Shown here piece by piece: positions 1-24,463 of a DNA stretch of 32,000 bases. Positions within the stretch are counted from its first letter, which is position 1. Each line of letters begins with the position of its first letter. The notes beneath the pieces are model-generated. The model was not told the origin of the DNA. It saw only the letters and a list, made by a program, of their open reading frames with translations, and searched no databases. The DNA lies in contig OY776328.1 of NCBI GenBank assembly GCA_963675515.1, positions 930,001 through 962,000 of the forward strand, given 5' to 3'. Source of the stretch: Coprobacillaceae bacterium (GTDB taxonomy: Bacteria; Bacillota_I; Bacilli_A; Erysipelotrichales; Coprobacillaceae). A program made the translations under genes and the position numbers.

Positions 1-507
1 GAATATTCCGCAATCCTGATGCAACGCACACTTTTAAGCGAACGAATCAATGGCGAACCGCTGGTCTTGCACTCCGATAACGGTGGTCCGATGAAGGCAG
101 CTACATTTCTGGGGATGCTCGAGAATCTTGGTGTGCAAAGCTCATTTTCTAGACCGCGGGTAAGCAACGATAATCCATATTCTGAATCGTTGTTTAAGAC
201 ATTTAAATATATGCCAAAATACCCCACAAGCGGTTTTGAATCACTCACACACGCTAGAAGCTGGGTCAATGAATTTGTACAATGGTACAACGAAATTCAC
301 TTACACAGCGGAATCAAATACGTGACACCCGCCAGTCGCCATCGAGGGGAAGATGCTGCGATACTGCAAAAAAGGAAAGAAGTTTATGCTGAAGCTAAAA
401 TGAAAAACCCTGAACGATGGAGTGGATCAGCCAGAGACTGGTCCTGGATTGAAGCAGTTGCCCTAAATCCGACAAAAGAAAGTGAATTATTGATCAACGA
501 AGTTTAA
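1..507 (+). CDS. rve-type (IS3/IS481-like) DDE transposase, C-terminal part; 5' end off-window
   Basis: Frame +1 is open from base 1 (GAA TAT TCC GCA ATC CTG precede the ATG at 19) to TAA 505-507. HSDNGGPMKA...SRPRVSNDNPYSESLFKTFKY...WYNEIHLHSGIKYVTP is the integrase-core region plus C-terminal tail typical of rve transposases. The right IS end must lie in 508-610 but I could not define it. Confidence 0.85.
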   Translation, partial: EYSAILMQRTLLSERINGEPLVLHSDNGGPMKAATFLGMLENLGVQSSFSRPRVSNDNPYSESLFKTFKYMPKYPTSGFESLTHARSWVNEFVQWYNEIHLHSGIKYVTPASRHRGEDAAILQKRKEVYAEAKMKNPERWSGSARDWSWIEAVALNPTKESELLINEV

Positions 508-610
508 CAAGCGCAACTCAAGAATTTGCATAATTAATATGAAAAAAATGCGTCAACTATATTGACAAATACCGTAAATTGATAATAATCTCAGACATTA
601 AATACATGTG

Positions 611-1318
611 CTATCCTCCAAAAAATTTCAAAAACAGATTTTGTACATCTTTCATTTTTGATCTCCCTACCGGAATTGAGTCTCCGTTAGAAATTTGAAC
701 ATACTGACTTTTAAACGAAGCCACATAGTTCAAATTTACAATGTATGACCTATGTATTCTAAACATATCATGGTCAATCAACAAATCTTCAATTTTTGAA
801 ATTGGAATATTGATTTGCTTTTCTTCTTCTATCATATGAAATATGCAATTATGTTTATCTGACTCAACATACATAATGGATTTTGTATCTATCGTATAGT
901 AACCGTTTGATGCGTCTAAACGAATTAATCTGTCGATGTTTTTTTGAAGAGAATTAGCAATCTGATCTAATGTTTTATTTAATCTAGTCTGGTTGACGGG
1001 CTTTACAATATAATCCAGCGCAGACACCTCATATCCATTGATTGCAAACTGGCTGTGTGAAGTAATAAAACATATTATGATATTCTTATTGTTTTTCCTG
1101 AGCTCTTTAGCAAATTCAATACCGGAAATTTCAGGAATTTCTATATCGAGTAGTGCCACATCGCAGTCCATTGCTTCTCCAGGAATCATGTATGATACTT
1201 TATTGGTAACGGTAAATTCTACAATGTTATTTGTGTTTTTTGCCCAATTGTCGATATATCCAATTAAAATGTCCCGGTCTATTTTAGAATCTTCAGCGAT
1301 GAAAAAACTAATGTTCAT
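611..1318 (-). CDS. LytTR-family two-component response regulator (REC + LytTR DNA-binding domain), AgrA/ComE-like
   Basis: Track ORF is 611..1447. I trimmed it to the ATG at 1318 (MNISFFIAEDS...), which is preceded by GAGGGG plus an 8-nt spacer. Receiver residues are intact: E9-D10, D in LLDIEIP, T in FITSH, K in YIVKP. The C-terminal half (FRIHRSYIVNLNYV...) is the LytTR signature. No histidine kinase gene is adjacent. Confidence 0.9.
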   Translation of the reverse strand: MNISFFIAEDSKIDRDILIGYIDNWAKNTNNIVEFTVTNKVSYMIPGEAMDCDVALLDIEIPEISGIEFAKELRKNNKNIIICFITSHSQFAINGYEVSALDYIVKPVNQTRLNKTLDQIANSLQKNIDRLIRLDASNGYYTIDTKSIMYVESDKHNCIFHMIEEEKQINIPISKIEDLLIDHDMFRIHRSYIVNLNYVASFKSQYVQISNGDSIPVGRSKMKDVQNLFLKFFGG

Positions 1319-1736
1319 GTAATTATCCCCTCTCTCATTTTGTTTCAATTCTACATGATTGTAACATATATTTTGCAGTTTGTATAATTGTTCCGAACAT
1401 AAATCCGTCAATATAAAGGATACAGGAGAGTATTTTTGTATAAACATAATACATTACTTAATTAATCATCAAATACAGGTGAGCACGGTATTGGATTATT
1501 GTCGATTTTGAAAAATCACCAAATGTCGCGCATTTTGGATGTAGTAATATTTCTTCGTTACTGACTATGAACTCCAAGATGTATCTGTTGGCTAATTAAG
1601 AAACATTATTTTTTTGTTCAATTATTTTCTTTGGTGTTGTTGTTGGTGCAAAAATTTTGCTTTTCATGCTCAATAGTGGAATCTAAAGAAATTTGATGTT
1701 TAAAATTAATTATACTAAATGAGAGGAGATAATCGA

Positions 1737-1856
1737 ATGGAATCAAAAAAAGTTGTGAAATTTTTGATAAAAATATCACAGGCTGCTAGCGACATAACTT
1801 GCTGGGGTGCATTTTTTCAACCTGATGCGCCAAAACGAAAATTTATTTCAAAATAA
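1737..1856 (+). CDS. agrD: AgrD-like cyclic (thiolactone) autoinducer-peptide precursor, 39 aa; below the ORF-track size cutoff
   Basis: ATG 1737 to TAA 1854-1856 encodes MESKKVVKFLIKISQAASDITCWGAFFQPDAPKRKFISK. SD GAGAGGAG lies at 1721-1728, 8 nt upstream. An amphipathic basic leader is followed by C-x4-F-Q-P-D-x-P-K, collinear with clostridial AgrD (CLWFT-HQPEEPK as I recall it). It is divergent from the LytTR regulator. Confidence 0.6.
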   Translation: MESKKVVKFLIKISQAASDITCWGAFFQPDAPKRKFISK

Positions 1857-1878
1857 GTGGGATCTATAAATGATTATT

Positions 1879-2025
1879 TGAATGACCATATTACACAGGC
1901 TGCAATTCTATGGGGTTGCGAAAATACGGTAACTGATATGAAATGACTAATTTGTTGGATTATTAAGCGGCTAAATTTAGAAATTTCACAACCAAAATCC
2001 TTGACTTGAGATATGTGGTCATTCA
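1879..2025 (+). mobile_element. MITE-like ~147-bp element, copy A
   Basis: Begins TGAATGACCATAT (1879-1891) and ends ATGTGGTCATTCA (2013-2025); the arms are complementary at 12/13. It is flanked by the direct repeat ATAAATGATTA (1866-1876 and 2025-2035). Its left ~25 bp and right ~50 bp are shared with copy B. It ends 27 nt before the ATG at 2053. Confidence 0.55.
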
Positions 2026-2052
2026 TAAATGATTAAAAGAAAGAGGTAAATT

Positions 2053-3096
2053 ATGAGTTTTAGAAGAGCAACATGTACAGGTATGGCATTATTATTAGTC
2101 GGTACGCTTATGACATCGAAAATAATTGATTACAGAAGTCGAGATTTAAATAGGCAATTAGATGGATATTATTTGTCAGATAAATCCGCAAATATTTTGT
2201 CAAATGCCTTACTTACTGAAAATGAAGTAACAAATACAGATGATTATTATGTGAAGCACGATCAATTAATACTGGACGAGCTTGATTTAGAAGTTAAAGA
2301 TAATATGCTAATTCGCACAAAAAAATCAGATTCTTTAAATGCAACATCTCAATTAAAATCGCTAAATTCTTCGATTAATAAAAACTCAGGTTTTGAAAAA
2401 AGGTTGGTAAAAATTATTTCTGACGAACAACAAAAAAATCGAAATATTGCGGCAATTGGAGTTTCTACAATATTTTTTGAAAATAGTACGGACACTGAAG
2501 TTAAAGATTTAGAGCCATTAAAATATACTGATTTTGAAAATTTTGTCGTGAATGAACGTGGTAATAATGTGTTCGATAAGTCGTTTGATGCAAATGATTT
2601 ATTGATTCAAACAGCTGGGACTCCTACTGAATATGGAAGCTTAACACTTTCAATTGTTGTTTCAATCGATAATTGGAATACAGATTTAGCATTTGCGACC
2701 TCATATTCTGATTGGAACCCATCATTGACTGAGGAGTTGTTTGGGTCGGACAAAATCAAACCGGATCCAGAAAATACTGATTATGTGACCCTCACGAATC
2801 CATCTTGTTATTATATGTATTCGGAAGCTCTTTCGGGTACATGCACTGACAAGTTTAGAGAAATGAAAACTTACAGTTCAGTTATTTATGGTTTTGATGA
2901 ACATAATGGACGAACTACGTTGTCTACGGCAGGAGAGTTATCGTCTACTCCGTCGGGCGTTAGAGAGTGGACAACAACATATTTACATACATGGGAGACA
3001 ATAGCACCTTCATTTAGCATTAGTAGCACTGGAGTTTCTATTTCTGGAACACCAAGTGACAAATCATGGCAACTAACAAGTTACATCCGTTATTAG
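2053..3096 (+). CDS. hypothetical secreted or membrane-anchored protein, 347 aa, no family recognised
   Basis: ATG is preceded by AAGAGG (2041-2046). N-terminal hydrophobic signal/anchor is MALLLVGTLMTS. An N/S/K-rich linker follows, then a C-terminal S/T/W/Y-rich, beta-strand-like region ending SYIRY. It is a long uninterrupted ORF in AT-rich DNA. Confidence 0.75.
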   Translation: MSFRRATCTGMALLLVGTLMTSKIIDYRSRDLNRQLDGYYLSDKSANILSNALLTENEVTNTDDYYVKHDQLILDELDLEVKDNMLIRTKKSDSLNATSQLKSLNSSINKNSGFEKRLVKIISDEQQKNRNIAAIGVSTIFFENSTDTEVKDLEPLKYTDFENFVVNERGNNVFDKSFDANDLLIQTAGTPTEYGSLTLSIVVSIDNWNTDLAFATSYSDWNPSLTEELFGSDKIKPDPENTDYVTLTNPSCYYMYSEALSGTCTDKFREMKTYSSVIYGFDEHNGRTTLSTAGELSSTPSGVREWTTTYLHTWETIAPSFSISSTGVSISGTPSDKSWQLTSYIRY

Positions 3097-3213
3097 CGAA
3101 TCTCAATTGTACTTTAAACGACTGATAATTTTATGATATAATCGGGGGGCATGTAATGTCTATATTTTCATTGTACAAATTGACTATGAAAATTGAAATG
3201 ACTACCCTAATCT

Positions 3214-3360
3214 TGAATGACCATATGCCACAGGAGCATGTCTTTTGGCTTGTGAAAGGATAGTGTTTTAACTAGTATGTAGAAATTTGGTACGTTTTTG
3301 AGTGACAAAATTTCTAAATTTCACAACTGAAAATTTCAACCTGAGCCATGTGGTCATTCA
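3214..3360 (+). mobile_element. MITE-like ~147-bp element, copy B
   Basis: Has the same terminal inverted repeats as copy A: TGAATGACCATAT (3214-3226) and ATGTGGTCATTCA (3348-3360). It is flanked by the direct repeat ACCCTAATCT (3204-3213 and 3363-3372). A paralogous unoccupied site lies at 4693-4760. It ends 66 nt before the ATG at 3427. Confidence 0.55.
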
Positions 3361-3426
3361 AAACCCTAATCTAAAAATGCTAAAATATGGAGGAAAAAGA
3401 CTATCAAGAATATTATATGGATTTTA

Positions 3427-3882
3427 ATGATATTAATATTTTCCGGATGCTCATTAAATGGTATAGGCACTAATCCCGAAAAAGCAATGTCAGATATAAT
3501 TGCAGAAAAATATGGGGAAGCAAATATATTATACCAAAACATTTGTAATGAATACGTTTCCGGAATATTTGAAAAAGGTGATGACGTAACCTTGGTTATC
3601 TTAGAAAAAGCAGGGGATAAATATGAGTTTTTTGGGTCTTCCAGCTACGATAAGAATAAGGCAAGTTACGGAATGTATAATTTTGTCAATGAAGATAACT
3701 TACTGGTTGTTTTTGCAGAAAATACCAACTTCAAATATGAGAGTTTGACTATAAATTATTTTAATAAAACGGATTCTAATGAAACGCTTGAGATAAAAGA
3801 CATTGTTGAGACTGATCAATATATATGCAACATGTATCTATTACCTTCGTGTTATCAATACAAAAATCTGCAATTATATTAA
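3427..3882 (+). CDS. putative lipoprotein, 151 aa from the ATG; true start may be further upstream
   Basis: Lipobox LIFSGC follows immediately after the ATG. The frame is open back to 3370 and encodes a full signal peptide (RKKTIKNIIWILMILIFSGC). A strong SD GGAGG lies at 3389-3393, but no canonical start codon occurs between it and 3427. Confidence 0.7.
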   Translation: MILIFSGCSLNGIGTNPEKAMSDIIAEKYGEANILYQNICNEYVSGIFEKGDDVTLVILEKAGDKYEFFGSSSYDKNKASYGMYNFVNEDNLLVVFAENTNFKYESLTINYFNKTDSNETLEIKDIVETDQYICNMYLLPSCYQYKNLQLY

Positions 3883-3920
3883 GTATTACTACTCAATCAA
3901 TCTTAGTTCCCGGGTGACTT

Positions 3921-4196
3921 TTATAACCACACATCAGGATTTTGGTATTCTGACCGGGATTCAATGCCGAATGCTTTGTAGCAGTCATTCGCCTTCTCCA
4001 AAGCTTCCTGTGTGATTACGGCATTATCATATACTTTACATTTTTGGTTTCGCAGGTTCAGGAACAATGAGTGAGGATTAATTTTAGTCTCCTTCAACTT
4101 GTCTTGAACCATTTTACAAAACTCAGTTGCGATGAATATCAACAACAGGTGGCCTCTAAATGTATCCCCGTTTTGCACTCGAAACAGTAATAGCAC
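3921..4196 (-). pseudogene. C-terminal fragment of an IS4/IS1634-like DDE transposase
   Basis: RVQNGDTFRGHLLLIFIATEF...ITQEALEKANDCYKAFGIE resembles the C-terminal tail of IS1634/IS4-type transposases (R.H......GH.f..FiAL... then ...aFGI). Only about 90 codons are open, the apparent start is a GTG artefact and no catalytic core is present. Confidence 0.55.
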
Positions 4197-4276
4197 GGCA
4201 TAGTTCCTATATGATACATCTTAATGTGTTACACTTGTTTCGTTAAAGAGTATATATAAGTGATTGGAGGAGTGTT

Positions 4277-4498
4277 ATGAATCTTATGCAAGCAGTGGTA
4301 TTTATTGGGGGATTCACTATATGGATTTCGTCAATAATATTTATTACGAGTCTATTGTCGGCGATTAAATTGATACACGAAGGTAGGCCCCATGGAACTG
4401 TAACATTTGTGTGCGCTACTAGTTTTTTATTGACGATAGCACCTATCATGATTGGTATAGTATTAGCCACTGTAGGTAACGTGTTAAATTTCCGGTAG
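4277..4498 (+). CDS. small two-TM membrane protein, 73 aa, unknown function
   Basis: GGAGG at 4266-4270 lies 6 nt before the ATG. There are two hydrophobic helices (VVFIGGFTIWISSIIFITSLL and FLLTIAPIMIGIVLATV). The overlapping 104-aa minus-strand ORF has no SD. Confidence 0.6.
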   Translation: MNLMQAVVFIGGFTIWISSIIFITSLLSAIKLIHEGRPHGTVTFVCATSFLLTIAPIMIGIVLATVGNVLNFR

Positions 4499-4730
4499 TT
4501 ACAGTTTAATAAAAAATTAACCAAATTAATAATGAGGTCGAAGTTTTTTGTTGGCAATAGTAAATGGCAAAATTTAACTCAAAAGTGCCATGTTCTACGC
4601 AAATGAAAATACCTTTATATGTATAATATGGGGCTAAACATTGTACCGATATATATTGCTGCTGTGTATAGTTTTGAATGATGGACCGCGTTAATTGAAA
4701 CGACTACTCTGATCTAAAAATGTTAAAATT

Positions 4731-4781
4731 TTGAGGAAAGAGATTATCAAGAAAATTATTGGTATAAATGCAAAACATTAA
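4731..4781 (+). pseudogene. truncated paralogue of the lipoprotein gene 5' end
   Basis: TTG AGG AAA GAG ATT ATC AAG AAA ATT ATT... (LRKEIIKKIIGINAKH, then stop) aligns at DNA level with 3388-3420 (TGG AGG AAA AAG ACT ATC AAG AAT ATT ATA), upstream of and in frame with 3427..3882. Confidence 0.4.
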
Positions 4782-4904
4782 ACTTTTATACCATGACAGA
4801 CATTGAAAATTGTATGAGTTATGCATAAATAAGCCTTTTAGATTTTATGCAGACGGGGTTGGGATTAAACTTGAAATTAACGTATTAATTTGAGGCGAAC
4901 TATA

Positions 4905-5177
4905 ATGATTTTATTATTTAAATACAAAAGGCTCTATTCAACGATTTATATAAATGACTTTATTAAGATCACCGATACCCTGATGAAAAACCAAATAGAT
5001 TTTACCCACCGAGTCAAGAATTTGGGATGCGATAGATTATTTGAATCGAATAGGAGATCAAAAGGGACAACAAGTTTGGGCTCTGATTCAATCAAAGAAT
5101 ATATTGTGTATGTGAATAAATCGGAATATGGAAAAGCGTGTAATAGTTTTGGGTTATCAGACAAGTTCCGGTGGTAG
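4905..5177 (+). CDS. hypothetical small protein, 90 aa
   Basis: The track ORF starts at TTG 4890. The ATG at 4905 has GAGG 9 nt upstream. The sequence has an alpha/beta-looking pattern but I recognise no family. Its stop TAG (5175-5177) lies inside the IS66 target duplication, so the ORF is not disrupted. Confidence 0.4.
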   Translation: MILLFKYKRLYSTIYINDFIKITDTLMKNQIDFTHRVKNLGCDRLFESNRRSKGTTSLGSDSIKEYIVYVNKSEYGKACNSFGLSDKFRW

Positions 5178-5245
5178 TATTGTAAGCGTCAAATAGAGCG
5201 GTGGAAGAATATTCTGATGCAAGGAAAAAGGAATCCGCGGACAAT

Positions 5246-7051
5246 TTATTTCTGTCTTTGGATTCCTTTTTTAAGTTCTTTGATTTCTTTGGCCGTCAGT
5301 TGGCGCAAATATTTGGGCAGGTCCTTGTTGTATGGTAATAGCTTTCTGATTTCGACCTCATCACTTGGATCGATGCTTGGTAATCTTTCCAATACGTACT
5401 CCATGTACATGTATGCTGACAACCCATTCTCTTCGGCACTAAGTAGTAACGAGTAAATGATTGCCGCAGCTTGGGCTCCTTTGGGGCTGGTATAGAACTT
5501 GCAGCGATTTCTAGATACCACAAATGGTCTGATAACTCTCTCGGCGCTTGAATTGTCGAACGGAACTTTTGGATTATTGAATACTTCACGGAATTCCTTC
5601 TCATGGTTCAATTCGTAATTAATTGCCTTGATCAACGTAGGTTTCATATTCACTTCAGGTAGCAAGATTATTTCTTTAAGGTACGCTAAAAAATTGTCAT
5701 AAATAGGCTTTACGATATCATTTCGGCCCTTATGAACATACTCAAAATATTTAACTGGATTTTTGCAGTGTTTTGACTTAGCGGTCGTTTCAATCTTGTT
5801 TTTTGCTTCGAATATTTTCTGGTAATAACGATAGCACGTATATTCGTAACTTTTGCTTTTATCACTACCTTTTGGCAATACCTCAAGGGCTTTACGGAAA
5901 TAACGGAAGGCGTGGACGTGGCAAAAACAGTTGGTGACATTATCAAGGGCCTCGTAGGCCCCATATGCATCGGTTACCAGGTAGTTCGAATAATCTCCGA
6001 TGAAATCTTCGACAACACGTTTTGAGCGAGTGGGATCATAACGATATAAGATGATCGGCACATCATATTGGCAGGTTCTTACCACCCACATGTAGGATTT
6101 ACTTTGAGCCGTCTTGCCCTCTTCATTTAAAATTTGGGTCGTGGTTTCGTCGCAGTGTATCACATTCATGGCCAACAGATCCTTGCGCATGCATTCGAAC
6201 AGTAAACCCAGATGTACCGAGGCTTTAATCATCCAATTGGCCATATTTTGTCTAGGGATGACAACATCATTCTCCAGGAATCGTTTTTCCTGAGCGGCCA
6301 GGGGCAAACCCTTCAAATATTTCATATCCATTATATTCGCAATCAGCGAAGGTGAAGCAATGCTCCCCTTGATGACAGGTTGTCTGCCCGGAACTCTTTT
6401 ATAAGATGACTTGCCGTCCAGGTTATGTTCCTGGCAAGCAACACATTCGTATACTGGAGTACGGTATATATTCATTTCCACTTTGGCTGGGGTATAGACG
6501 AGTTCCTTTCTTTCATCGTACTTTTTTATTTTCATGGTTGTACCACAAAGGTCGCAGACATCGAAATTTTCTGGTGTCGGCTCGTCAATGATATTGGTTT
6601 TTAGGTGATCGTAGTTAATGTGCTTTTCTTTAGGGATTCTTACTTTTCTTTTGTACCCTTTGATTTCCTTGACTTCTATTTCTTCAGTCTCAGTTACCAC
6701 ACCAAAATCGATACCAATCAGACTGAAAAGGTCGGGACCTTGATTGTATTCTTTTATATTATTTCTCTGAGAGGAATATCGGGCGTTTTCTAATATCTTG
6801 ATATATTCGTTTTTCTGTTGCAGTTCCAATTTGCGTTCGTTGATTTCACTAATCAGCTTCTTATTTTCGGCGATCAAAGTCTTTTCTTTAGCAGTGAATT
6901 TCTTTTCTTTGGCAGCCAACAACTCATTTTCTTTGATAAGTTTAACTTTTGAAATACGGTCGGATTCGATTTTCTCACAAAGCTCTTTTTCTCTATTTTT
7001 GAAAGCAGCAATCAGCTCTTCTTTAGACATATTTTCCATCAGCTTTATCAT
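5246..7051 (-). CDS. tnpC: IS66-family transposase TnpC
   Basis: Has an N-terminal coiled coil, a CxxC...CxxC zinc-finger region (CDLCGT...YECVACQ) and an IS66 DDE core (VIHCDETTTQIL...YMWV...). The start was moved to the ATG at 7051 (MIKLMENMSKEE), which follows GAGGTGGA; the track start at 7087 has no SD. Confidence 0.92.
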   Translation of the reverse strand: MIKLMENMSKEELIAAFKNREKELCEKIESDRISKVKLIKENELLAAKEKKFTAKEKTLIAENKKLISEINERKLELQQKNEYIKILENARYSSQRNNIKEYNQGPDLFSLIGIDFGVVTETEEIEVKEIKGYKRKVRIPKEKHINYDHLKTNIIDEPTPENFDVCDLCGTTMKIKKYDERKELVYTPAKVEMNIYRTPVYECVACQEHNLDGKSSYKRVPGRQPVIKGSIASPSLIANIMDMKYLKGLPLAAQEKRFLENDVVIPRQNMANWMIKASVHLGLLFECMRKDLLAMNVIHCDETTTQILNEEGKTAQSKSYMWVVRTCQYDVPIILYRYDPTRSKRVVEDFIGDYSNYLVTDAYGAYEALDNVTNCFCHVHAFRYFRKALEVLPKGSDKSKSYEYTCYRYYQKIFEAKNKIETTAKSKHCKNPVKYFEYVHKGRNDIVKPIYDNFLAYLKEIILLPEVNMKPTLIKAINYELNHEKEFREVFNNPKVPFDNSSAERVIRPFVVSRNRCKFYTSPKGAQAAAIIYSLLLSAEENGLSAYMYMEYVLERLPSIDPSDEVEIRKLLPYNKDLPKYLRQLTAKEIKELKKGIQRQK

Positions 7052-7196
7052 CGAAATCCACCTCGTTTCTCTTTGAGAGTATACCATAAAAATGGCTGTA
7101 AGTCTTGATTTTACGGCAATTTCTTAAAGATGTGAATAACTTAAAAAGATATAAAAGAAACCCACAAATTATTGTGAATTACTCCTATATCTTTCG

Positions 7197-7556
7197 CTAA
7201 ATTATTACTGAAATATCCTTGAACGCCCGCTTTTGTTCAATCTCCAGACCATCAAGCAGCCAGTTTAGCTGCCGCAAGTCAACGGTCATCGAGCTGATCT
7301 CATCTTGGGCCTTGGGCCAATAGAATCGATCAGTGTTCAACAGCTTCTTGGAGTGGATGACAAAACCGTTTTTATCAAACTCCAACATCTTGATTGTCCG
7401 CTTGTTCCGGCTACAAAATATGTAGAGATTATTGGCGGTTGGATCCAGGTAAAGATTGTGGCTCACCATGGCGCTCAATCCCGCATAACTTTTTCTTAAA
7501 TCCGTTGCTCCGGGTACCAGATAGATATTGTCGAAGTCCTCAAATTTAATCTTCAT
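7197..7556 (-). CDS. tnpB: IS66-family accessory protein TnpB
   Basis: YLVPGATDLRKSYAGLSAMV...LYIFCSRNKRTIKMLEFDKNGFVIHSKKL...RFYWP matches the IS66 Orf2 pattern. It overlaps the tnpA stop by 11 nt, the usual coupled arrangement. Confidence 0.9.
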   Translation of the reverse strand: MKIKFEDFDNIYLVPGATDLRKSYAGLSAMVSHNLYLDPTANNLYIFCSRNKRTIKMLEFDKNGFVIHSKKLLNTDRFYWPKAQDEISSMTVDLRQLNWLLDGLEIEQKRAFKDISVII

Positions 7557-7878
7557 CGAGCAACCTGATAAGCTTGGCCAAAGTCACCAAATCCGTTGAA
7601 TCATCAACTTTGATGCAGGCTTTACCGATGACGATTTCAAAACCATCATTCCGGATAGTTGGAACGCAGTCGACTAAGCTAAGTTTTACCAGCGGGCTGT
7701 TGACTTCGTTGGCACATTCGCTTACCCTGGATCTTTTCCGATACGGCTTCGAATATTTGTGGTAGCAAAAGGCATTAAAAGAAACGTCATTGGCTAAGCA
7801 CCATTTCTTGATTGGTAAATCACTATTGGTGGCATCTTCGAAAAACTGATGCCACTGGTCCTGAGAATATTGATTCAT
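7546..7878 (-). CDS. tnpA: IS66-family accessory protein TnpA (Orf1)
   Basis: This is the first gene of the IS66 operon and encodes a small HTH-like protein. The start was set to the ATG at 7878 (MNQYSQDQW), which is preceded by GGAGGTG. Confidence 0.8.
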   Translation of the reverse strand: MNQYSQDQWHQFFEDATNSDLPIKKWCLANDVSFNAFCYHKYSKPYRKRSRVSECANEVNSPLVKLSLVDCVPTIRNDGFEIVIGKACIKVDDSTDLVTLAKLIRLLDED

Positions 7879-8291
7879 ATCACACCTCCAAGTTGATGTG
7901 ATCATTGTATCAACAAAAAGAAAGGAATCCTACCACCGCTCTATTTGGCGCGTACGTAGTATTTATAACCAATAACCACGGCCGTGCCAAGTGCGCGGTC
8001 TTTTACGTATGATGGCGATATCGATTGAAACCTCCTTTCGGTTTAGCTTCTTCGCAATTAGAAGTATGTTTAAAAGCATTGTTTGCCTGATTCGAGCATA
8101 ATTGTTTTTGCTCGACTGATATTAAGGAGTGTAATTTTGGAAAGGAGCGTTTTTCAGTTTTACAGCCAGCAATGATATTTTCAACTTATGAAAAGCGAGA
8201 GAAATCCACTCCAAAGTATTGACCGGGTGTTACTACCGGATGTTAGAGTAATATCATATTCTAGACAAGAAGTCTAACAGGAGGAATTATC

Positions 8292-9131
8292 ATGGAGTAT
8301 GTTATTTTGAACAATGGCGTGAAAATGCCAAAATTGGGTTTTGGAACAATCGGCCAGTCGGGAAAGCAGATAACCGACAACGTCGTTTTCGCGTTGAACA
8401 ACGGCTATGAGCTGATTGACACTGCGAATCGCTATGGCAACGAGGTCGAAGTGAGCGAAGGTTTGAAAAAATCCGGCATCGCCCGCAAGGATATATTTTT
8501 GGAAACGAAACTTGGTCCTACCCTTTATGAAAATGACCAGGCGATTGATGACACATTGAAAAGACTGGGTGTCGATTATATCGATCTGATGCTACTACAT
8601 CATCCGGTAAACAACTACATATACGCATACAAGATGCTGGAAAAAGCCTACAAGGAAGGAAAAATCAGAGCGATCGGGATCTCCAATTTTCCAGTTGAAA
8701 AGCTTCAGGAACTTCTCGATTGTTGTGAAATAGTGCCAGCTGTGATGCAATTGGAATGCCATCCGTATTATCCGGCGGAAGCGGTCAAGTCATTCTGCGA
8801 GCAACATGGCATTGCCTTGCAGTCATGGTATCCTCTGGGACATGGGAATCCGGAGATGCTAGAAGAGCCAGTGTTCAAGGATCTTGCCAACAAATACAAC
8901 AAATCGCCGGTCCAGATCATCCTGAGATGGCATACCCAGATGGGATTCGGCCTGGTGCCGGGGAGCAAATCATTCGACCATATCAAGGACAATGCCGATA
9001 TTTTCGATTTCACCTTGACCGAAGATGAAATGGCAAAAATAGCAACGGTTAATAAACATAAGCCATTCTATCAGGTTACCGAAGAATCATTGAACCGGAT
9101 GGCAACAACAAAATGTAATTTCGAAGATTAG
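8292..9131 (+). CDS. aldo/keto reductase (2,5-diketo-D-gluconate-reductase-like)
   Basis: SD AGGAGG precedes the ATG. AKR motifs are present: LGFGT, ELIDTANRYGNE, ...TKL..., GISNF, LECHPY, QIILRWHTQMGF..PGS. Confidence 0.92.
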   Translation: MEYVILNNGVKMPKLGFGTIGQSGKQITDNVVFALNNGYELIDTANRYGNEVEVSEGLKKSGIARKDIFLETKLGPTLYENDQAIDDTLKRLGVDYIDLMLLHHPVNNYIYAYKMLEKAYKEGKIRAIGISNFPVEKLQELLDCCEIVPAVMQLECHPYYPAEAVKSFCEQHGIALQSWYPLGHGNPEMLEEPVFKDLANKYNKSPVQIILRWHTQMGFGLVPGSKSFDHIKDNADIFDFTLTEDEMAKIATVNKHKPFYQVTEESLNRMATTKCNFED

Positions 9132-9142
9132 GAGAAAAGATA

Positions 9143-10012
9143 ATGGAATATTTGACATTAAGCAACAGTCTGAAAATGCCTGCTTTGGGATTTGGAGTGT
9201 TTCAGGTTCCTGACAAAAAAGAATGTGAGGAATCGGTATATCAGGCAATCAAAGCGGGGTATCGTCTGATCGATACAGCGGCTTCTTATACCAATGAGGA
9301 TGCTGTCGGAACGGCAGTCAAAAGAGCGATCAACGATGGTATCTGTACCAGAGAAGACCTGTTCATTACTTCCAAGATGTGGGTGCAAGACATGGAAAAC
9401 TATGAAATGGCAAAGGCAGCCATCGATGCATCGATTGCAAAAAGCGGTCTGGACTATCTTGACTTGTACCTTTTGCATCAGGCTATGAGAGACTATTTTT
9501 CGGCGTGGCGGGCCATGGAAGACGCATATGAGCAAGGGAAATTGAAAGCAATCGGTGTTTCCAACTTCTACCCAAATATCCTCACGAACTTTTGCGAAAC
9601 GGTAAGGATCAAACCGATGGTCAATCAGGTGGAGCTGCATCCTTATTTCACCCAGGAACAGGCATTGGAAACAATGAAAGAATACAATGTAATTCCCGAG
9701 GCTTGGGCGCCTCTGGGCGGGGGACGCTATAACCCATTCGAAGATGAGATGCTTGTGGCTATCGCAAAGAAATACGATAAAACAGTCGGCCAGGTTCTGC
9801 TTCGTTGGAACATCCAAAGAGGAGTAGTGGTCATCCCAAAATCAACCCGGTTGGAAAGAATTATCGAAAATATCGATGTGTTCGACTTCAGCCTTGATGA
9901 AAATGATATGAGGCAAATATCCACTTTGGACAAGGGGTACACCGGCTCTAGGGCAAAACATTTTGATCCTGATTTTGTCAGAATGTGCCTGGCGAAGAAA
10001 ATTCACGATTAA
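9143..10012 (+). CDS. aldo/keto reductase
   Basis: Lies 11 nt after the previous gene, with SD AGGAG. Motifs present: LGFGVFQ, RLIDTAASYTNE, ITSKMW, GVSNF, VELHPY, QVLLRWNIQRGVVVIPKS. Confidence 0.92.
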   Translation: MEYLTLSNSLKMPALGFGVFQVPDKKECEESVYQAIKAGYRLIDTAASYTNEDAVGTAVKRAINDGICTREDLFITSKMWVQDMENYEMAKAAIDASIAKSGLDYLDLYLLHQAMRDYFSAWRAMEDAYEQGKLKAIGVSNFYPNILTNFCETVRIKPMVNQVELHPYFTQEQALETMKEYNVIPEAWAPLGGGRYNPFEDEMLVAIAKKYDKTVGQVLLRWNIQRGVVVIPKSTRLERIIENIDVFDFSLDENDMRQISTLDKGYTGSRAKHFDPDFVRMCLAKKIHD

Positions 10013-22945: not shown

Positions 22946-24463
22946 GGTTACCGGATTTAAATAATCATTATCAATAGGGCTGTAATTCAATTTTGTCAGG
23001 CGGGCCGGTTTTGGCCCTTTGACATGGAATCCGGCAACGACTCCGGTAAACTGGGAAAATGTGCACTCGGTTGCGAAGTGCTTGGTGTAGGTCCAGCCGA
23101 TTTCAACCCATTCATTATTGTCATTATTCAAAAAGAAAAAGTATTTTTCTTTTGAACCGCATATTTTCAGGTTGACTGGATCATTCCCCATCGGCAAATC
23201 AAAGAATTTTTCATCCAAGATATCGCCGACTCTCTTGCGCAGCAGGAGCGACTTCACTTCGTTATTCGATGTCACAAGCAGATCCGTATGGTGTTCATTA
23301 TCGCCAAGCAGTGCAATTCCAGCTTCCTGTTCAGCGTTTTCAGGGTCGAATTGGAAGGCTGCGGTCAGTTCAAAGGCGTAGTCCCTCTGGCGCAATGCCA
23401 GAAACACCGGACTTACGATGCTGTCCAACGAATAATCCGTCCCGGTTATTTCAATGGCATCTTCACTGAAGCTTATATGCTTTGAAATGTCATGGCGCGG
23501 TGAAATAATCCCGTTGGGCAATTGTTTCATGGAAACGTCCAGGGAAAAATCGGTTTCTCTTTTCTGGATAACATTCAGTTCGGTTTCAACATCCATCGGT
23601 AGATATCCTAGTTTTGAATGCAACCAACCGTCGTCATCCCAGTAACATGGGCTCAGCATTGTTTCCCGGCCCATAACAGTCCGATGCTTATAGGGCCGGG
23701 TCCCCAGACAGACAAGCCAAGGTTCTCCCTTGCCGTCCTCAACAAGGTCACCATGGCCGACGCTTTGGATCGGCTCTTTTGAACTGTCCTTGTTTGACAG
23801 TATCGGGTTGTGGGGACAAGGGCGGAAAGGGCCCCAGATTGATTCGCTTCGCGAAAGAGTGACCATATGGCCTTCCCTCGTCCCGCCTTCTGCCAGCAGC
23901 AGATAATAACAAGATCCTCTTTTGAAAATATGGGGAGCCTCGACATCCCGGCCGCCGCACCCTCGACTGATGGTCTTGGGCTGGCAAAGCAGTCGGCCGC
24001 TGTCCAACTCGATTTCTACTTGCCTTATTGTGGATATCCCGTCATCGTAATCGGAATACTGGATATATGTGCGACCATTTTCGAAATACATCGAGGGATC
24101 GATTCCCCTGATATCGATATCGACGGGGTCTGACCAATCACCAGCGGGATTGGTGGCTGTCACATAGAAATTCCGGGTCTTGCCATTGATAAGGCAGGTT
24201 GTGATCATATAGAATCTATCATTATGACAGCGGATTGTCGGTGCATATATGCCCTGTGAACATTTGACACCGGTCAGGTCGAGCTGCGACTGTCTTGTCA
24301 GGCAACTCCCGATCTGCTTCCAGTTGATCAAATCGGTGCTTGAAAAAATCGGCACCCCTGGAAAGTATTCGAAACTGGATGTCACCAGGTAATAGTCGTT
24401 ATCCTTTTTGCATATCGACGGATCCGGATGGAAGCCTGGAATAATCGGATTTTGATACTTCAT
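22916..24463 (-). CDS. GH43 beta-xylosidase/alpha-L-arabinofuranosidase with C-terminal beta-sandwich domain
   Basis: The ATG at 24463 (MKYQNPIIPGFHPDPS) follows AGGAGGG; the track start at 24559 is an upstream extension. It has GH43 propeller motifs (DPSI, YYLV.SSFE, EAPHIF, ...HGD...). Confidence 0.93.
   Translation of the reverse strand: MKYQNPIIPGFHPDPSICKKDNDYYLVTSSFEYFPGVPIFSSTDLINWKQIGSCLTRQSQLDLTGVKCSQGIYAPTIRCHNDRFYMITTCLINGKTRNFYVTATNPAGDWSDPVDIDIRGIDPSMYFENGRTYIQYSDYDDGISTIRQVEIELDSGRLLCQPKTISRGCGGRDVEAPHIFKRGSCYYLLLAEGGTREGHMVTLSRSESIWGPFRPCPHNPILSNKDSSKEPIQSVGHGDLVEDGKGEPWLVCLGTRPYKHRTVMGRETMLSPCYWDDDGWLHSKLGYLPMDVETELNVIQKRETDFSLDVSMKQLPNGIISPRHDISKHISFSEDAIEITGTDYSLDSIVSPVFLALRQRDYAFELTAAFQFDPENAEQEAGIALLGDNEHHTDLLVTSNNEVKSLLLRKRVGDILDEKFFDLPMGNDPVNLKICGSKEKYFFFLNNDNNEWVEIGWTYTKHFATECTFSQFTGVVAGFHVKGPKPARLTKLNYSPIDNDYLNPVTKKDGMISLI

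Follow-up and report, generated by a model that had tools for sequence, protein, structure and literature searches.

A probable non-autonomous transposable element (MITE) inserted twice in an agr-linked gene string of a Coprobacillaceae bacterium

Two short related elements, copies A and B, occupy spacers of an agr-linked gene string in the window, by which we mean the whole 32-kb stretch (32,000 nucleotides) of Coprobacillaceae DNA analyzed here. They are very likely copies of a non-autonomous element (MITE) that inserted independently on two occasions, and a promoter role for them is unlikely. An initial annotation of this DNA had already proposed a non-autonomous transposable element, which is supported by the empty sites and by the further copy with a different flanking duplication described below. 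Its coordinates and sequences for both copies proved correct to the base, as did the distances of 27 nt and 66 nt from the element ends to the start codons at 2053 and 3427.

The gene string consists, in order, of an agrD-like peptide gene, copy A, the gene for a 347-aa protein, copy B, and a lipoprotein gene, all in the same orientation, and it adjoins a gene for a LytTR response regulator. The features of the locus are as follows.

611-1447, minus strand: LytTR response regulator gene, divergent from the AgrD-like gene
1737-1856, plus strand: AgrD-like peptide gene, 39 aa (MESKKVVKFLIKISQAASDITCWGAFFQPDAPKRKFISK), first gene of the interrupted string, with an ortholog in the related contig L032
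1866-1876, unstranded: left flanking direct repeat of copy A (ATAAATGATTA), read directly; 11 nt by script
1877-2027, plus strand: copy A of the putative MITE, a 151-bp span including TT and TA extensions; core 1879-2025
1916-1923, unstranded: internal inverted-repeat motif of copy A (TTGCGAAA), partner TTTCACAA at 1984-1991, from conserved columns and predicted pairing
2025-2035, unstranded: right flanking direct repeat of copy A (ATAAATGATTA), whose first A is the last arm base
2053-3096, plus strand: gene for the 347-aa protein, downstream of copy A; no Pfam domain, hydrophobic N-terminal segment
3204-3213, unstranded: left flanking direct repeat of copy B (ACCCTAATCT), read directly and by script
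3212-3362, plus strand: copy B of the putative MITE; core 3214-3360
3250-3257, unstranded: internal inverted-repeat motif of copy B, partner at 3319-3326
3363-3372, unstranded: right flanking direct repeat of copy B (ACCCTAATCT), read directly
3427-3882, plus strand: 151-aa lipoprotein-like gene, downstream of copy B
4693-4759, plus strand: paralogous empty site for copy B, repeat match of 54 nt at 85%

Positions 611-1856 make up an agr-type quorum-sensing locus. The 39-aa peptide, which contains ...ITCWGAFFQPDAPK..., is presumably an AgrD, judging by the family pattern of a Cys plus four residues followed by QPxxPK. A search of 5.8 billion proteins gave just two homologues of the 347-aa protein, at 69% and 41% identity, and the gene for the former lies directly 3' of an agrD-like gene on L032.

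Both copies have a core of 147 bp, starting with the arm TGAATGACCATAT (at 1879 and 3214) and ending with the arm ATGTGGTCATTCA (at 2025 and 3360). Within each copy the 13-nt arms are complementary at 12 of 13 positions, and the arms of A and B are identical, including the mismatched position. Aligned over their full length, the copies share 70.6% identity (blastn, E=2e-11); the ends are the best-conserved parts, with 91% identity over the left ~22 nt and 73% over the right ~80 nt. Beyond the arms, the inverted repeat runs on imperfectly to ~21 nt with the consensus TGAATGACCAYWTNNCNYARG, which fits all six ends of the three copies known to us, and in copy B it spans 22 nt at 86% (3213-3234 / 3340-3361). 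Farther in, ~40 nt from each end, is another inverted repeat, TTGYGAAA with TTTCACAA, which could possibly be a second transposase-binding site or merely part of the overall palindrome. Indeed, the whole unit is quasi-palindromic, its reverse strand matching the family profile at E values of 8e-11 to 5e-6. Six-frame translation yields one spurious 50-aa ORF in copy A, in a frame that is broken by stops in the other two copies. Searched against 1.84 billion protein representatives, this ORF returned unrelated tandem-repeat artefacts only, and it was dropped as a probe for miscalled copies of the element.

The region is AT-rich (32% G+C), and the arm 13-mer with at most two mismatches occurs five times in the 32-kb window compared to 1.8 expected, both of which would suit a chance palindrome or low-complexity similarity. 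However, apart from the ends of the copies, the sole good arm match in the window is a two-mismatch chance match at 23856, and an accident of this kind is already refuted, with practically no probability left to it, by the full-length alignment, the shared mismatch in the arms, the perfect flanking repeats at three sites, and the precise absence of the elements from homologous sites.

These homologous sites were found in L032, a 71-kb ENA contig from a related organism that was identified via the homologue of the 347-aa protein. The contig has an agr-type locus (5203-9932) and encodes AgrB, a kinase of the AgrC type, an IS3, a LytTR regulator, an AgrD-like peptide, orf340, and the 151-aa lipoprotein; the peptide gene is divergent and encodes 38 aa (43 aa in the gene-caller model). 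From the regulator through the lipoprotein, gene order is the same in L032 and the window, with nucleotide identities of 82% for the LytTR regulator and 72% for both orf340 and the lipoprotein. The blastn segments between the two break exactly at both elements, and TGAATGACCA, allowing one mismatch, is absent from the 18 kb of L032 that were scanned. Once 1877-2035 (159 bp) is removed, the window aligns with L032 across site A with one 1-nt indel, located upstream of the junction at a distance of ~30 nt. At site B, where divergence is greater, L032 is shorter by about 160 bp, and taking 159 bp out of the window brings the sequences back into line here as well.

For site B, a further empty site exists within the window itself. 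At 4693-4759, AATTGAAACGACTACTCTGATCT runs unbroken into AAAAATGTTAAAAT..., and 4706-4715 (ACTCTGATCT) is a single target copy that matches both flanking repeats of copy B, such that the left flank, one target, and the right flank are contiguous. Removal of 3214-3372 from the window gives a gap-free alignment to this paralog across the junction. The surrounding segment, 4693-4790, is what remains of a decayed second copy of the lipoprotein gene, namely its promoter and initial 16 codons, after which there is a stop; it reads TTG AGG AAA GAG ATT ATC... and is ~85% identical to the region 5' of 3427.

Copies A and B thus landed independently in spacers of the co-oriented string, and the comparison of the loci indicates that both insertions postdate the split from the lineage bearing L032. 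The initial annotation had made its reading depend on a search for empty sites, and these are present in L032 for both copies and at 4693-4759 for copy B. It had also offered the alternative that the flanking repeats belong to a longer, conserved, duplicated promoter cassette, which is refuted because L032 is empty, the paralog in the window is empty, and a third copy with its own repeat lies elsewhere.

The third copy, of 148 bp and with the same termini, is located at 2120-2267 of L005, an Erysipelotrichaceae MAG, and carries its own 11-bp flanking repeat, AAAATTCGATT. On one side of it lies a degraded PTS EIIA gene and on the other an ORF of 140 aa whose Pfam hits are weak and integrase-SAM-like; the context is therefore unrelated to that in the window, and the locus contains no agr genes. 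A check for further copies, as proposed earlier, has in this way yielded one, with a different duplication.

The flanking repeats are perfect and yet different at each of the three sites (11, 10, and 11 nt by script), amounting to 32 paired positions with 0 mismatches. In copy A, the right repeat directly precedes the ribosome-binding site AGAAAGAGG of the 347-aa gene. When 147-bp segments were placed at random in the AT-rich part of the window with the real elements left unmasked (n=20,000), repeats of at least 8 nt occurred in 0.35% of placements, and the frequency of repeats of at least 10 nt was close to that expected from placements that happened to fall on copies A and B themselves. Perfect repeats at three sites are far beyond chance. 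Their reading as target-site duplications, first suggested in the initial annotation, is borne out by the fact that they differ at each site and that the target is single at the empty site 4693-4759.

The length of the duplication is ambiguous. At maximum length, the repeats are separated from the 13-nt arm by 2, 2, and 1 nt at one of the two ends, the intervening bases being T where that end is the left one and A where it is the right one. Alternatively, the element can be read as a 151/151/152-bp unit with the ends TTTGAATG...CATTCAAA (TTTGAATG...CATTCAWA in the window copies, of which copy B begins CTT) and a flush 8-bp duplication in all three cases: AATGATTA for A (left copy at 1869-1876), ACCCTAAT for B, and AAATTCGA for the L005 copy. 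Each copy then has one deviant terminal base that matches the flank. A duplication of 8 bp and one of 10-11 bp are equally regular; the empty sites fit both alike, and three copies are too few to favor either.

Structurally, the element qualifies as a bacterial MITE. It is small (147-151 bp, where the usual limit is ~500 bp) and lacks a transposase gene, its terminal inverted repeats are conserved in three copies, its flanking duplications differ between sites (ATAAATGATTA, ACCCTAATCT, and AAAATTCGATT), homologous sites occur without it (both sites in L032, site B at 4693-4759), and it has hairpin potential. Between A and B, the cores show 30% divergence, the core of the third copy (copy C) differs more, and the arms alone are constant. 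Constant arms with diverged cores are what would be expected if a transposase that recognizes the ends had spread the family. Given perfect duplications next to cores of this divergence, the insertions appear to be recent and to derive from source copies that had already diverged; over the time that the cores needed to diverge, the duplications should have accumulated mismatches. If this is right, further members and an active transposase should exist in the genome or in relatives, and some transposase recognizing TGAATGACCAYWT... ends would have been active recently in the lineage.

These features are compatible with a mechanism in which a DDE-type transposase encoded elsewhere would bind the conserved 13-21-nt terminal inverted repeats, and may additionally recognize the internal pair TTGYGAAA/TTTCACAA. 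It would cut AT-rich DNA between genes in a staggered fashion, and repair would then leave the 8-bp (or 10-11-bp) flanking duplication.

The family is apparently rare, with few copies per genome. Across the searched collections it comprises three copies, a very small number for MITEs and fewer than the initial annotation had implied, and these come from two genomes, with the 2.88-Mb host genome represented by the 32-kb window. The scans of genome, metagenome, and virus collections were exact-pattern searches. In 596 Gb of species-representative genomes, the pattern TGAATGACCA-N110-140-TGGTCATTCA had 23 matches, with the L005 copy as the sole family member; 8 of the 23 represent a different set of repeat units in KSB1-type MAGs, and the remainder are chance matches. 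A looser two-ended pattern gave one match in the JGI metagenomes, a G+C-rich chance palindrome, and the one-ended 21-nt consensus gave seven in IMG/VR, none with a plausible partner end. An apparent 2.6-kb pair in IMG/VR (L026, the only IMG/VR match with ORFs listed) lies inside ORFs and was rejected. Neither blastn of both copies against PLSDB at E values up to 10 nor megablast of the 8-kb island returned anything relevant, and a full-text literature search with the terminal 10-mer gave irrelevant matches only. Related genomes sampled via homologues of the IS66 transposase (L034 and L035) contain 0 copies. The exact 13-mer present in L034 is a chance match, because it lies within an apparent remnant of a serine-recombinase gene (CGHS codons, read by eye).

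We found no autonomous element with matching ends in the window, the 596 Gb of genomes, the JGI metagenomes, IMG/VR, or the plasmids, and no autonomous IS with matching termini in any locus retrieved. The initial annotation noted rightly that the window contains no IS with such ends: the ends of the IS66 element (GTAAGCG...) are unrelated to the element termini, which rejects it as the parent, and there is no other TGAATGACCA-type end. Likewise, the IS3-like elements of the window and of L032 were rejected as parents, as TGAATGACC-type sequence is absent from both. The TG...CA termini and the long duplication do not securely indicate any single IS family.

The different repeat units mentioned above (L008, L011, L013, L014, L015, L017, L020, and L023) are 130-160 bp long, have inverted repeats (TAATA)TGAATGACCAGTTGAAA, and occur in KSB1, Zhuqueibacterota-type, and 'Cytophagia' MAGs. 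Their terminal 10-mer is also that of the element, but their cores are different from its core, and four of them have the common core GGTTCGACGGAGTA...CCTGAGTTTATCGAAGG. It is unclear whether the common 10-mer reflects a related transposase or chance.

The initial annotation further held that the element delivers outward-facing regulatory sequence to the downstream genes, and this claim is not supported. Promoter-like matches in the region are at background (25, compared to 22.4 ± 5.5 in shuffled sequence). The best -35-like hexamer, TTGACT at 2002-2007 of copy A, is not kept in copies B or C, and the possible hybrid promoter formed by TTCAAA at the end of copy B, 18 nt before TGCTAAAAT in the flank, is likewise not maintained across the three copies. 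The elements contain neither a terminator nor LytTR-type direct repeats (9-mers at 19-23-nt spacing), and no such repeats are shared with the agrA-agrD spacer. In L032, the genes are spaced by 44 and 164 nt in the absence of the elements, consistent with a single transcript from the promoter of the agrD-like gene, and the window elements are probably inside the equivalent transcript. Since L032 keeps the same genes tightly spaced without the elements, the downstream genes do not depend on them. We therefore consider it unlikely that the element is a mobile promoter or regulatory cassette whose outward promoter or regulator-binding site drives or rewires the downstream gene, even though each of the three copies (A, B, and that in L005) is followed by a gene pointing the same way, and promoter-carrying MITEs such as the Correia element are known (PMC3184786). 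The elements most likely do not act as promoters.

The preferred reading of the copies as transposed MITEs leaves room for an effect at the RNA level, where a strand asymmetry is apparent. All three copies are oriented in the sense direction relative to the downstream gene. The predicted sense-strand RNA folds have energies of -34.9 kcal/mol for copy A (z -2.9) and -45.2 kcal/mol for copy B (z -4.5), and the consensus folds at -27.2 kcal/mol in the sense and -19.8 kcal/mol in the antisense direction. Furthermore, the transition-type mismatches in the 21-nt stem are all G·U on the sense strand (7 cells, ~5 independent events, 0 A·C), a pattern for which we estimate a one-sided p of ~0.03 from three sequences and about five substitutions, and whose source could also be shared descent or strand-biased mutation. 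Taken together with the predicted folds, the pattern suggests a co-transcribed RNA hairpin of the ERIC type. The elements, if carried in the operon transcript in sense orientation, might fold into a long hairpin, which in turn might change mRNA processing or stability. That the element has actually been co-opted as a sense-strand RNA hairpin within the agr-type operon, retuning expression via RNase processing or mRNA stability, is doubtful. In that event, agrD, the 347-aa gene, and the lipoprotein gene would be separated by long double-stranded stretches derived from the two insertions, their expression would be uncoupled or retuned, and the G·U-only mismatches would reflect selection on RNA rather than on transposase-binding DNA. 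A hairpin that affects expression would add a Gram-positive case to ERIC-type repeat-mediated mRNA control.

The same strong sense-strand hairpin and G·U-only mismatches, together with the location in the leaders of genes beside an agr-type system, could also be explained by a structured cis-regulatory RNA, or a small-RNA gene, that is native to the quorum-sensing locus, was duplicated there, and is immobile. This is highly improbable, as the orthologous locus lacks both copies, which largely refutes it, each copy has its own perfect flanking duplication, and a third copy resides in another genome at a locus without agr genes. Nor does the element belong to a known RNA family, in that an Rfam 15 gathering-score scan of the whole window gave 0 matches.

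As a MITE, the element can be compared with several established families. ERIC-type elements have a TA motif at both termini, and Correia elements also duplicate TA, whereas the element described here is associated with an 8-11-bp duplication and not with TA. For RUP elements, the associated transposase is of the IS630 type and the target is TA; neither feature applies here. The element is therefore set apart from the Correia, ERIC, and RUP types by its 8-11-bp non-TA duplications, and it appears to share no sequence with any of them; the comparison of sequence was the blank Rfam scan of the window against curated families. Similarities do exist: Correia (CREE; Neisseria, ~104-157 bp) and ERIC (enterobacteria, ~127 bp) are close to the element in size, and these near-palindromic, intergenic, co-transcribed sequences form long hairpins, for which our element has similar potential (PMC3184786). 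ERIC insertions change mRNA stability via RNase E cleavage (PMC3184786). RUP (Streptococcus pneumoniae, ~107 bp) is, like our element, an intergenic MITE of a low-G+C Gram-positive host (PMC3184786). However, Correia and ERIC reach tens to hundreds of copies per genome compared to three known copies here, and Correia has functional promoters and an IHF site, in contrast to the lack of a conserved promoter here.

A closer parallel in copy number is MITEAba12 of Acinetobacter/Moraxellaceae, present once in the parental strain ATCC 17978 and twice in a derivative strain (PMC6382973). It is likewise small (113 bp), AT-rich, and non-coding, and has 16-bp imperfect terminal inverted repeats with one differing position and a 9-bp target duplication (PMC6382973). 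It shows no sequence similarity to our element, and it differs in having a proposed parent, ISAba12, and in that its transposition has been observed, whereas mobility here is deduced from the empty sites.

We also considered integron attC sites, ~60-140-bp imperfect inverted repeats that, as here, alternate with genes in an array and that act as a folded single strand, giving a strand-specific structure. In contrast to the element, attC sites have RYYYAAC...GTTRRRY core sites, lack a target duplication, and mark cassette boundaries. This reading was rejected because the GTT/AAC-type motifs are in reversed order, there is no fit at the degenerate positions, the element has flanking duplications, and L032 keeps the same genes without it.

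MITEs are a well-known kind of element, of which a census recorded 1.4 million in 56.5% of 183,232 genomes, mostly genus-specific (PMC11602168). As they are among the commonest prokaryotic repeats (PMC11602168), a new low-copy family such as this one is a matter of routine annotation. For the locus itself, the element explains the unusually long spacers of the agr-linked gene string and points to recent remodeling, alongside an intact IS66 and an IS3-like fragment.

Several minor observations concern the surroundings of the string. An IS3-like fragment lies at the start of the window. In L032, AgrB and the AgrC-type kinase are located beyond an IS3 insertion, and on that side the window has an rve_3 transposase fragment (1-507), for which reason the kinase and AgrB of the window may have been separated from the regulator, or lost. 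The lipoprotein gene has an atypical start: translation from ATG 3427 would give a mere signal-peptide stub (MILIFSGC), and an in-frame ATC at 3403, nine nt past GGAGG, would give a normal signal peptide (KNIIWILMILIFSGC; window 3388-3430). The same start region reads ATT ATC in L032 (11150-11190) and TTG in the paralog within the window, and the gene likely has a non-ATG start or a decaying start codon.

The IS66-family element is intact, spanning 5182-7955 (5174-7963 with the duplication), with three ORFs including TnpB_IS66 and a DDE transposase. Its inverted repeats are 29 nt long and begin with GTAAGCG, and its 8-bp target duplication (GTAGTATT) is perfect. The element forms the boundary between a 32% G+C island (1-5000) and DNA of roughly 45% G+C. 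Beyond it lie two tandem paralogous aldo/keto reductase genes (8292-9131 and 9143-10012), the starts of which are 70% identical over 67 nt.
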